Positions 16,424-18,091 of a stretch of 53,657 bases of DNA are shown one piece after another. The first letter of the stretch is position 1, and each line of letters opens with the position of its first letter. The notes below the pieces were generated by a model, which saw only the letters and a program-made list of their open reading frames with translations, was not told the origin of the DNA and did not search any database. The translations under genes were made by a program, and so were the position numbers. This DNA comes from Thermoplasmatota archaeon. GTDB taxonomy: Archaea > Thermoplasmatota > Thermoplasmata > Halarchaeoplasmatales > Halarchaeoplasmataceae. The stretch lies in NCBI GenBank assembly GCA_036626195.1, contig JAZKSH010000002.1:1-53657 (forward strand). The letters run 5' to 3'.

Positions 16424-18091
16424 TTGTCACCGAAGATCGACCTACCGGAAGGACTAAAAGCCCAGGAGATAGAGGGCCCAGGAAAACTTCAGCCACTGTT
16501 GAAAAAGTTGAAACGTTATTCATTTCAGGGTTACCTTAAGATAAGTGTTCGGGATGAGTTCGAAGGCTATCTTGTGTTGAAGGAAGGGCTGCCTAGAAAC
16601 GCTTTATTTTACGATCTAAAGGAGGATGAGCAGGAAAAGGGTCTGCCCGCCCTGCAGCAGATCCATGCATTGAACTCAAATCCTAACCTCTACATCTCGG
16701 TACACACCGATCTGGACATCGATGAGTTGATTGAAAAAGTTGGGGGAAAACTCCCCGCTCGAGGCGTCGAAAAGACCGGCACTGGTAAAACCCCAACACC
16801 CGATAAACCGAGTGAGATGTTCAAGCAGCAGACTTTAGAGCGGTCCGAAGGGGCCTTGAGTGATCTATCCGAGGAGGTCAAAGAAGATTTTCTAGAGAGG
16901 TATTCTTTTAGAAACTTCATCGTTGGTCCCAATAACCGGTTCGCCTACACGGCGGCTCTCTCGGTGGCAGAAAACCCAGACGAGAGTTACAATCCGCTTT
17001 TCATAACCAGCAAGACCGGGCTGGGCAAGACCCATCTTTTGAAAGCAATCGGCCGAGCGCAGCTCATAGACGATAAAGATAGAAAAGTGAAGTATGTCGT
17101 GACCTCTAAACTTTTGAACGAGATAGAGGAAAGCGAAAAGGAAGACCAGATGTCCGACCTAAGAGAGAAGTATCTCGACACTGAGACTTTGCTATTGGAC
17201 GATGTACAATCCTTGGCCAACAAGGAACATCTCCAGGAGGAGTTTTTCTATATACTCTCGGAATTGCAGAGCAAGGGAGGTCTGATCGTATTATCAGCTG
17301 ATCGATCGCCGGAAGATCTGCCGCAGATCGAGGACCACCTGATCTCACGCTTCAGGTCGGGCCTTGTGGTTGATATCTTAGCCCCTAGTTACGAAACCAG
17401 GAAGAAGATAGTCGAGTTCAAGGCGGAAAGAGAAGGGCACGAGATACCGGAAGACGTGGTGAACTACATGGCTAAAAAGATCAGGAAGAACGTGAGCTCT
17501 ATCGAGGGGGCTTTGAACAGGGTCACCGCTTACTCATCACTCCTGGATAAGCCCATAACCCTCGAAACCATGGAGGACGTTCTGACGAGATACATAGATA
17601 AAGAGATCGATACGGGGGAGAGGCTCAAACCTCAGTTCAAACCCGGGAGAAGCTACATCGTAGAAGAAGAGACTACGCCCTCAGAGGGTTTGAGTCTCCT
17701 CGATGAATTACCGTCCCGAAAGCAGAAGTTCGTGCTCTCAAGGATGAACCCTGAGCAGATCAAAGACGAGTATGAGCTCAAAAACTCGGAGATCGCATGG
17801 TTGACGGATAGAAAGAGCGAAGAGCAGCCTACCATACCCCCTAATCTAGAGAGATTGAGTTGGACACTAGAAGAGCAGATCAAGAGTATGGACGTTGTGT
17901 TCATCGACGGACTTGAATACTTGATAAGCAACACTAGTTTTGACGCCAGCATACAGTTCATAAGACACATCGTGGACGTGGTCTCTGAAACCGACACTGT
18001 GTTCGTGCTCGTCGTCAATCCGAAGGCGTTAGAGAGCAAAGAGATCAGTATACTGGAGAGGGAGATGGACGTGATCTCCTACGTAAGTTAA
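16424..18091 (+). CDS. DnaA-type AAA+ ATPase lacking DnaA domains I/II/IV, fused to an N-terminal unknown module and a C-terminal DUF835-like module
   Basis: Colinear with DnaA domain III: [96 protein letters not shown]. The only possible start is TTG 16424, because an in-frame TAA sits at 16412-16414. Confidence 0.75.
   Translation: [555 protein letters not shown]

Follow-up and report, generated by a model that had tools for sequence, protein, structure and literature searches.

A DnaA-type AAA+ core between PATAN-like and DUF835 domains in a conserved family of archaeal proteins

Introduction

In a stretch of 53,657 nucleotides (nt) from a Thermoplasmatota archaeon (assembly GCA_036626195.1, contig JAZKSH010000002.1, the whole stretch being called the window here) we analysed the gene at 16424..18091, whose product (the window protein) consists of three domains, namely an N-terminal PATAN-like domain, an AAA+ core of the DnaA domain III type and a C-terminal DUF835 domain. 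We establish the identities of these domains, the residue conservation and spread of the family, its conserved neighbours and its homology to bacterial paralogues that are embedded in operons. On balance, and with moderate confidence, we favour the reading that the window protein is a non-initiator ATPase of the DnaA clade which acts as an ATP-dependent oligomerisation switch in archaeal signalling or cell organisation. Its role would then lie in oligomerisation, partner binding and signalling rather than in replication.

The replication initiator of archaea is Orc1/Cdc6, and to our knowledge a DnaA-type AAA+ ATPase is seen as a hallmark of bacterial initiation, with Hda as the only well-known regulatory offshoot. 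An earlier note on this gene, made from the sequence alone, had spoken of an exapted nucleotide switch rather than an initiator. We infer the same, because residues for unwinding that are invariant in DnaA have been lost, because the flanking domains are of a signalling type and because of the gene context.

Results and Discussion

Domain architecture of the window protein

The gene and the parts of its product have the following coordinates in the window.

16386..16399, forward strand: TATA-like box AAAACATATTTAAG, ~25-38 nt before the TTG start, conserved in the related loci L001 and L008
16424..18091, forward strand: gene for the PATAN-like / DnaA-type AAA+ / DUF835 protein, 555 amino acids (aa), TTG start, TAA stop
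16454..16738, forward strand: N-terminal domain, residues 11-105, beta-alpha-beta4-alpha-beta-alpha, assigned to the PATAN (DUF4388/PatA_N, DUF2226) superfamily
16739..16870, forward strand: linker, residues ~106-149, modelled with low confidence and probably disordered (predicted local distance difference test, pLDDT, <50 at residues 114-130)
16886..17593, forward strand: DnaA domain III AAA+ core and lid, residues 155-390 (PF00308; PDB 8btg/8bv3; Foldseek 8bv3)
17009..17032, forward strand: Walker A SKTGLGKT, residues 196-203, with Ser196 in place of the first Gly of DnaA
17189..17203, forward strand: Walker B LLLDD, residues 256-260
17294..17311, forward strand: sensor 1 SADRSP, residues 291-296, with Asp293
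17336..17365, forward strand: box VII, residues 305-314; Arg309, equivalent to the E. coli arginine finger R285, is kept and His305 stands for R281
17486..17521, forward strand: sensor 2 region, residues 355-366, with Ser358 in place of E. coli R334
17642..18076, forward strand: DUF835 domain, residues ~407-551 (PF05763), alpha/beta and probably KaiC/RecA-like, without a P-loop

Judged by sequence profiles and model, the middle domain is a genuine DnaA domain III and its identity is unambiguous. The Pfam family Bac_DnaA (PF00308) matches residues 158-317 with E=1.7e-53 and 181 bits, while neither DnaA_N nor Bac_DnaA_C (PF08299) found a match in the Pfam scan of the protein, and the NCBIfam model TIGR00362 aligned over its positions 75-341 of 437 only, with 283 bits and thus under its 344-bit cutoff. 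In the earlier note residues ~155-400 had been described as colinear with DnaA domain III, with domains I/II and the helix-turn-helix (HTH) of domain IV missing. Pfam, NCBIfam and Foldseek agree with the first statement and all motifs quoted there are present, and the absent flanking matches together with the partial span of TIGR00362 bear out the second. Related AAA+ families score far lower: the Hda model TIGR03420 reached 93.4 bits against a cutoff of 194.8, IstB was far weaker than DnaA (IstB_IS21 with 32.7 bits in Pfam, IS21_help_AAA with 51.5 bits in NCBIfam), and neither the Orc1/Cdc6 family nor Cdc6_C gave any match in the Pfam and NCBIfam scans. DnaA is thus the closest family to the core (181 vs 33 bits for IstB in Pfam; 283 vs 93 for Hda vs 51 for IstB in NCBIfam). 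The Pfam match to AAA_22 falls within the DUF835 part.

The best hits of a search against PDB sequences were the DnaA proteins of B. subtilis, T. maritima and A. aeolicus with E=6e-59 to 1e-33, the entries 8btg and 8bv3 being matched at E~6e-59. In an AlphaFold2 model computed from 32 family members (mean pLDDT 83) three domains are well defined (residues 11-105, ~150-390 and ~410-551), with two low-confidence linkers between them. In Foldseek the middle domain of this model superposes on domain III of B. subtilis DnaA (8bv3) with a template modelling (TM) score of 0.96, a root mean square deviation of 1.2 Å and 44% identity, compared with a TM of ~0.7 and 19-20% identity for Hda, so the fold search, too, places the core with DnaA.

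The open reading frame (ORF) can start only at TTG 16424, just as the earlier note had it, with an in-frame TAA at 16412-16414 standing four codons before it and the first internal Met being residue 132. This start is supported because the N-terminus can be aligned from residue ~7 ('PEGLK...') with 31 homologues, because the orthologues at L001 (protein 82% identical) and L008 (43%) have a TTG start at the same position, and because the three genes have a TATA-like 'AAACATATTTA' element ~25-38 nt upstream in common. The position of this element suggests that the mRNA is leaderless or carries a very short leader.

For the N-terminal module, which the note had counted among the two modules that replace DnaA domains I/II and IV, the model shows a domain of its own at residues 11-105 with a pLDDT of 91.9. 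Among 15 family N-termini one matched DUF4388 (E=0.021) and one DUF2226 (E=0.0016) in Pfam; the N-terminal profile found nothing among the PDB sequences, and its hhalign comparison with the single PATAN region of the bacterial protein P0110 (see below) was not significant. Searching a library of 1.84 billion proteins with this profile led to 311 clusters, which include ~330-aa proteins with two copies of the domain (E=1e-16 to 1e-8). As 27 out of 30 such non-DnaA proteins reach PF14332 at the same residues (best E=2.7e-12), with 4 matching DUF2226, this profile evidence places the module in the PATAN superfamily, as one of its short members. Experiments have identified PATAN as an output domain for protein interaction that in Synechocystis binds PilC and the type IV pilus motor ATPase PilB1, and its genes are noted to occur regularly with mglA/mglB homologues (bioRxiv 10.1101/2021.06.11.447907).

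The resemblance of the C-terminal module to DUF835 could be put on firm ground, as PF05763 matches residues 419-548 with E=1.3e-26 and 93.5 bits against a cutoff of 33.1. Partial NCBIfam matches to ArlH/FlaH (E=3.8e-6 and 0.006) cover the Walker-B region of this part, a GxxGxGK[ST] motif is absent from residues 407-551, and AlphaFold2 models it as an alpha/beta Rossmann-like domain with pLDDT ~85-93. When the DUF835 profile was searched against PDB sequences nothing significant was found, FlaH appearing at E=1.4 only. DUF835 has been classed as iKaiC, an inactivated KaiC-like domain, and it is known as an output domain of archaeal signal transduction, for example in REC-DUF835 response regulators of Thermoplasmata and Methanomicrobia (Galperin et al. 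2018, PMC5847659). The partial ArlH/FlaH matches, the alpha/beta model and the missing P-loop of the window protein are consistent with this classification.

Residue conservation in the AAA+ core

We mapped to the E. coli numbering the cores of 60 archaeal family members and of 78 bona fide bacterial DnaA proteins spread over many phyla, together with the two AAA+ domains of each of 11 bacterial tandem proteins; in the E. coli DnaA reference K178, V211, D235, R245, R281, R285 and R334 fall on the expected motifs. The window protein possesses all of K202, T203, D259, D260, D293 and R309. Among the archaeal cores the Walker A Lys/Thr and the sensor 1 Asp are present in 60/60 each, the Walker B Asp-Asp in 59/60 and the equivalent of the arginine finger R285 in 57/60; the Arg equivalent to R334 in sensor 2 is kept by 54 and missing from 6 of the 60, and R281 has its equivalent in 50/60, His being found at this position in 2/60. 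Ser at the first Gly of the P-loop occurs in 50/60 archaeal cores and in the N-terminal AAA+ domain of all 11 tandem proteins, compared with Gly in 76 of the 78 DnaAs. The three substitutions pointed out in the earlier note (sensor-2 Arg to Ser, first box VII Arg to His, first P-loop Gly to Ser) could thus be located as S358, H305 and S196, and in this alignment S196 is typical of the family and the losses of the sensor-2 and box VII Arg are confined to the small subclade of the window protein.

Three further positions set the archaeal family apart from DnaA. I or V at the V211 position is found in 78/78 DnaAs vs 11/60 archaeal members (Glu235 in the window protein), R227 in 78/78 vs 20/60 (Leu251) and E204 in 78/78 vs 25/60 (Ser228). 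From work on E. coli and B. subtilis we take these three residues to serve the engagement of single-stranded origin DNA and its unwinding. The position of E. coli K243 is occupied by K or R in 52/60 archaeal members, and the longer members described below keep a DnaA-like 'FTNELIQAL' motif that is specific for initiators.

The archaeal family and its bacterial relatives

A database search for the same architecture returned at least 58 clusters (at the 90% identity level) that combine Bac_DnaA with DUF835. The named clusters all stem from metagenome-assembled genomes (MAGs) of Thermoplasmatota/Thermoplasmata, save one that is labelled Aenigmatarchaeota. They carry automatic names such as 'DnaA ATPase domain-containing protein', 'DUF835 domain-containing protein' or 'DnaA/Hda family protein', and in JGI/IMG the label is 'chromosomal replication initiator protein DnaA'. 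Scanning metagenomes with a family-specific DUF835 profile yielded 164 confirmed relatives, with 80 loci kept, their sources being soils and the sediments of soda lakes and fresh waters, and a profile search of genome contigs gave, among the matches listed, two family members and one probable contaminant. The latter (L041, CAZVNH010000270.1, a 4-kb contig of a 'Thermoplasmatales' MAG) has a DnaA core inside the bona fide bacterial clade and is probably a bin contamination.

The members can be divided into short forms of ~540-630 aa, to which the window protein belongs, and long forms of ~650-770 aa, in which a helical insert of ~170 aa separates the N-terminal domain from the AAA+ core. A W-x3-GY linker directly precedes the AAA+ core in the long forms, at the place of a probably disordered stretch of ~45 aa in the short form of the window, and from this alignment the window linker at residues ~106-149 is a remnant of the long helical one. 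The deposited call of one relative (P0029, L004:10001) is N-terminally truncated, the frame upstream encoding a PATAN-like start 'EFPEGTKIQEK...'. In another (P0153, L092:8001-9377), orthologous to the long-form loci and lying in the order PGK, gene, double zinc ribbon (DZR) protein, KaiC-like ATPase, the AAA+ core is cleanly deleted with the PATAN-like domain, linker and DUF835 kept, which is either a real variant or an assembly artefact. Other layouts were seen in P0192 (1348 aa) and P0224 (1420 aa; L091:8001-12263), in which a single chain joins a PATAN-like domain and a long coiled coil to a Bac_DnaA ATPase and ends in a DZR, and in P0174, where PATAN-like domain, coiled coil and DZR occur without an ATPase. 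As fusions, the first two are independent Rosetta-stone evidence for the pairing of ATPase and zinc ribbon that is described below; JGI names for proteins of this type are 'chromosomal replication initiator protein' and 'chromosome segregation ATPase'.

The best non-archaeal matches are Gemmatimonadota proteins of ~650 aa with two tandem Bac_DnaA ATPase domains and without domain I or IV, one of which (P0110) also has a C-terminal PATAN domain (E=1.9e-25). In BLASTP a long archaeal form can be aligned collinearly with a tandem protein, from the linker that joins its two domains through the second AAA+ domain (365 aa, 38% identity), and hhalign with the linker alone gave a probability of 97.4% and E=1.6e-11 over 86 columns, compared with E=0.06 for a reversed-sequence control. 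By identity we had to reject the tandem proteins as the closest relatives of the archaeal AAA+ domain, the window core being 44-47% identical to true DnaAs vs 41% to the tandem domains; the earlier high bit scores to the tandem proteins arose because two domains were summed. In a neighbour-joining tree of 160 cores, which is a distance tree, effectively unrooted and without outgroup, on a DnaA sample biased to query-like sequences, the 78 true DnaAs form a clade (82% bootstrap), outside of which lie the archaeal cores and those of both tandem domains. The branching order among these outer sequences is without support, with 0/200 bootstraps separating the archaeal family as a monophyletic group from the N-terminal tandem domain. 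The relationship between the archaeal and the tandem proteins is accordingly drawn from the homology of the linker, the shared P-loop Ser and the split in the tree.

Two bacterial loci show the setting of the tandem genes. In L089 the tandem gene (8001-9947) lies within a tightly packed co-directional cluster with the order CheA, CheC/X, TPR, PATAN/TPR, TPR, two Roadblock/LC7, small GTPase, tandem gene, PATAN/TPR, CheR, CheD, CheB and CheW, in which the small GTPase matches TIGR00231 with E=3.5e-6, under the cutoff, and by eye resembles MglA. A PATAN gene precedes the tandem gene of L090 (5416-7497). By its gene content this setting is one of chemosensory or polarity functions and not of replication, and the tandem DnaA-like proteins appear to be a hitherto undescribed part of polarity or chemosensory modules of the MglA/MglB type.

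The reading of the earlier note is supported, with the refinement that the protein is not a one-off derivative of DnaA, being a member of a large family that has a linker and AAA+ module in common with bacterial non-initiator paralogues of DnaA. A characterised family with the architecture of the window protein was not found. We found no publication on DnaA-DUF835 proteins or on operons that combine a DnaA-like ATPase with genes for an MglA-like GTPase, Roadblock and PATAN, with a passing mention being possible.

Gene neighbourhood

The following genes of the window are referred to in this section.

10384..10821, reverse strand: Roadblock/LC7 (MglB-like) gene 5.6 kb upstream, 82% identical to a PF03259-carrying gene of L001, syntenic in L001 and L008
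15735..16325, reverse strand: gene for an MJ0042-type zinc ribbon and multi-pass membrane protein, divergent and upstream; beside the ATPase gene in the window, L001, L004, L093 and L095, not in all loci
18098..18676, reverse strand: zinc-ribbon partner gene, the conserved neighbour, encoding a small acidic protein in which an HTH-like N-terminus and a conserved helical core precede a CxxC...CxxC zinc ribbon at the C-terminus
49911..52157, reverse strand: DZR homologue of 748 aa with multiple zinc ribbons (tblastn, Pfam zinc ribbons), 32 kb from the ATPase gene

In the short-form loci (the window, L001, L004, L008 and L093-L097) the next gene downstream of the ATPase gene encodes, in 9/9 cases, a small zinc-ribbon protein with a conserved helical core. 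This gene is convergent in six and co-directional in three of the loci, and in L004 it overlaps the ATPase stop codon by 4 nt. The window copy, whose product also has the HTH-like N-terminus, belongs to no Pfam family and shows a weak match to the Cbp1 HTH (E=0.004). In the long-form metagenome loci the same place is taken by a convergent DZR gene with a helical C-terminal region (73/75); in the two exceptions the locus ends <200 nt from the ATPase gene, which makes it 73 of 73 informative loci. A DZR gene is also found directly downstream in L005, L007 and L092. Taking both forms together, a zinc-ribbon gene adjoins the ATPase gene in 82/82 loci with enough sequence, and with this the conserved linkage to neighbours that the earlier note had suggested looking for was found. 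Orthology of the short-form zinc-ribbon and the long-form DZR neighbours was considered and rejected, as only the ribbon aligns (27 columns, probability 69%).

In 27/75 long-form loci the DZR gene is followed by genes for a KaiC-like ATPase (PF06745) and a coiled-coil protein, and in two longer contigs this block of DZR and KaiC-like genes ends with a PilB-type T2SSE ATPase. The archaeal ATPase gene is probably monocistronic because it is usually flanked by one divergent and one convergent gene. The region of the DZR homologue in the window (49911-52157) shows strongly negative skews (GC skew -0.43, AT skew -0.38).

Proposed function and alternatives

In the mechanism that we propose, the AAA+ core with its intact Walker A/B and sensor 1 would bind ATP, and ATP-bound protomers would stack head-to-tail in the fashion of DnaA via Arg309. 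The domain of the PATAN superfamily would recruit or localise a protein partner, the DUF835 domain, probably an inactivated KaiC/RecA-like fold, would couple the assembly to a partner, and the oligomeric state would gate the output. As partners of DUF835 the adjoining zinc-ribbon protein would be the prime candidate, followed by KaiC-type hub ATPases.

Several points weigh against such a signalling switch. Function is assigned to the family members through guilt by association; plain synteny may account for the Roadblock gene 5.6 kb away, and an mglA-like GTPase gene was not identified beside the archaeal genes. Being usually monocistronic and convergent with its zinc-ribbon neighbour, the ATPase gene lacks operon-level support for a pathway, and the neighbour-joining tree may suffer from long-branch attraction. 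The window N-terminus itself matched 0 Pfam families, which makes the PATAN assignment transitive, and no PDB fold counterpart of its model was better than E=0.05 and TM 0.34. Finally, binding to nucleic acids is common among zinc ribbons and RecA-like folds.

The last point leads to the main rival reading, a DNA-directed role, in which the DnaA-type ATPase would still assemble on DNA and recognition would be provided in trans by the zinc-ribbon/HTH-like neighbour or in cis by the RecA-like DUF835 domain, in replication control, chromosome organisation or transcription of Thermoplasmatota. The core is close to true DnaA in identity and nearly identical to it in structure, the K243 position is basic in most members, the long forms keep the initiator-specific motif, the universal neighbour is a zinc-ribbon protein with an HTH-like part and the weak Cbp1 match in the window copy, and in P0192 and P0224 a double zinc ribbon stands at the place of DnaA domain IV. 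We nevertheless regard this role as unlikely: domains I and IV are missing, the residues V211, R227 and E204, invariant in 78 DnaAs, are Glu, Leu and Ser in the window protein, the flanking domains and the operons of the bacterial relatives are of a signalling type, and the orthologue at L092 has lost the AAA+ core and kept the PATAN-like and DUF835 domains. Neither origin-like repeat clusters nor an AT-rich intergenic region were found near the ATPase gene, the 53.7-kb window, to which this search was limited, contains no Orc1/Cdc6 gene, and dnaN is absent from the archaeal gene context. A bolder form of the idea, that the ATPase forms ATP-dependent nucleic-acid filaments and constitutes, with its zinc-ribbon partner, a second, DnaA-type system of DNA remodelling or of replication/segregation control beside Orc1/Cdc6, appears highly doubtful to us.

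As a variant of the proposed switch the window subclade might consist of pseudo-ATPases, catalytically dead and serving as a static scaffold that bridges the partners of PATAN and DUF835. It would fit that the sensor-2 Arg is lost (S358; only 6/60 members are without the Arg), that R281 is replaced by H305, that the first P-loop Gly is a Ser and that an orthologue without AAA+ core exists. The Walker A Lys/Thr, Walker B, sensor 1 and arginine finger of the window protein are intact, though, and the P-loop Ser is found across the family and in all N-terminal AAA+ domains of the tandem proteins. In addition, substitutions of R334 in E. coli DnaA leave ATP binding intact and impair hydrolysis, and because of this analogy a slow-hydrolysing, long-lived ATP-state switch is probably what the window subclade represents, and not a dead ATPase, which we rate as decidedly unlikely.

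An NTPase of a defence system or mobile element, either an IstB/DnaC-like helper or a STAND-like sensor, is very improbable. It could be read from the secondary IstB_IS21 match and from a weak PADLOC match to mad8 (E=4.5e-4), but the former sits under the Bac_DnaA match of 181 bits, no PADLOC match is meaningful, no relatives occur in viral contigs, and the gene has a stable synteny among housekeeping genes of diverged genomes with no transposase or integrase nearby.

An artefact, be it a bacterial contaminant, a chimeric contig or a mis-called ORF, is effectively refuted even if the contig L041 shows that a bona fide bacterial-type DnaA can end up under a 'Thermoplasmatales' name, since the window is archaeal throughout, the same fusion is found in at least 58 clusters and 80 metagenome loci with archaeal neighbours, and all three domains are confidently modelled in a single chain.

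Archaeal origin of the contig and other genes of the window

The concern that the contig might be bacterial or chimeric was settled by its gene content. The window contains a fibrillarin gene (26693-27355, identified by synteny with a PF01269-carrying gene of L001), encodes a diphthamide synthase and an ArcS-type protein with DUF5591 and PUA, and has the complete trio of the archaeal AMP salvage pathway on the reverse strand (45520-49432), which consists of an AMP phosphorylase-like protein, a form-III RuBisCO large subunit and an IF-2B-family ribose-1,5-bisphosphate isomerase. A tRNA gene at 25272-25368 (reverse strand, Rfam 44 bits), to which ARAGORN assigned no anticodon, is 97 nt long, consistent with an archaeal intron. 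The genes around the ATPase gene are arranged in the order DUF447, PHP, VCA0040-like, TraB, Na/Ca exchanger, Zn-ribbon membrane protein, DnaA-like, small Zn-ribbon, nadC-nadB-nadA ... fibrillarin. This order recurs in one independent MAG contig and partly in two more distant ones, which encode TBP and Rpr2. With archaeal genes throughout and the same syntenic position in several independent MAGs, chimerism and bacterial contamination of the contig are excluded.

Some other features of the window are worth recording. Between 22 and 26 kb there is a stretch of low GC content (0.40) with few long ORFs. At 24283-25168 (forward strand) three short ORFs in shifted frames (24283-24555, 24556-24795 and 24761-25168) have the look of a frameshifted gene or pseudogene; the 'GAQKSGTSSL' at the beginning of the first one is, by eye, a sulfotransferase-like motif. 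An origin was considered in the low-GC gap at 23.2-25.3 kb and rejected, as the gap holds this frameshifted sulfotransferase-like gene. An 84-aa ORF at 23391-23645 (forward strand) is extremely lysine-rich (KKxxKK repeats) and may encode a small basic nucleic-acid-binding protein or be a chance ORF, and the gene at 38385-40214 (reverse strand) encodes a 609-aa protein with PIN, T2SSE-type ATPase and KH domains.

Significance

New in this work are the architecture and the functional setting of a DnaA-clade AAA+ module, in proteins that public databases already list with generic or incorrect names. The archaeal family, large and conserved, keeps the nucleotide switch of DnaA and drops its DNA-handling parts for a PATAN-like and a probably inactivated KaiC domain. 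If our reading is true, bacteria and archaea alike would have taken over the ATP-dependent self-assembly of DnaA as a signalling or polarity switch, and the family would be a new component of the poorly understood KaiC-centred signalling network of archaea. As JGI systematically gives members the wrong label 'chromosomal replication initiator protein DnaA', the prediction of origins in archaeal MAGs and their screening for contamination can also be misled.

Comparison with known systems

Orc1/Cdc6 and DnaC/IstB belong to the same initiator/loader clade of AAA+ ATPases as the window protein, which nevertheless has no match to Orc1/Cdc6, an IstB score five-fold under that of DnaA and no winged-helix domain. 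Hda/HdaA resembles it more in concept, being likewise a DnaA-clade AAA+ protein without domain IV that acts as a regulator rather than as an initiator, but Hda has a clamp-binding N-terminus and neither PATAN nor DUF835, and the similarity is much weaker. For DnaA itself (compared through TIGR00362 and the PDB entries 8btg, 8bv3, 2z4r, 2hcb and 3r8f) the likeness is confined to core and lid, with 44-47% identity, TM 0.96 and kept Walker A/B, sensor 1 and arginine finger, to which most members of the archaeal family add the sensor-2 Arg. The family differs from DnaA in having PATAN-like and DUF835 domains instead of domain I/II and domain IV with its DnaA-box HTH and in not conserving V211, R227 and E204, and the window gene is archaeal and not located beside an origin.

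The flanking domains connect the window protein to signalling systems. Archaeal DUF835 signalling proteins such as the REC-DUF835 regulators carry the same C-terminal DUF835 in an output position, with a receiver or PAS domain as input in contrast to the DnaA-type ATPase and PATAN-like domain of the window protein, and a DnaA fusion is not in the table of PMC5847659. PixE, PixG, PatA and the PATAN proteins of MglA/MglB modules also use a domain of the PATAN superfamily as a protein-interaction module; the variant of the window protein is short, without the alpha-clip insertion, and fused to an AAA+ domain instead of a receiver domain, and the link to pili is known for PATAN regulators and not for the window locus. 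The bacterial tandem ATPases (for example P0047, P0102 and P0110 from Gemmatimonadota) have two AAA+ domains and no DUF835, whereas in the archaeal proteins a single AAA+ domain stands between the PATAN-like N-terminus and DUF835. They share with the archaeal family the W-x3-GY helical linker followed by AAA+, most of which linker the short form of the window has lost, the P-loop Ser, found in their N-terminal AAA+ domain, the lack of domains I and IV and the association with PATAN, which is either fused, as in P0110, or encoded by an adjacent gene.

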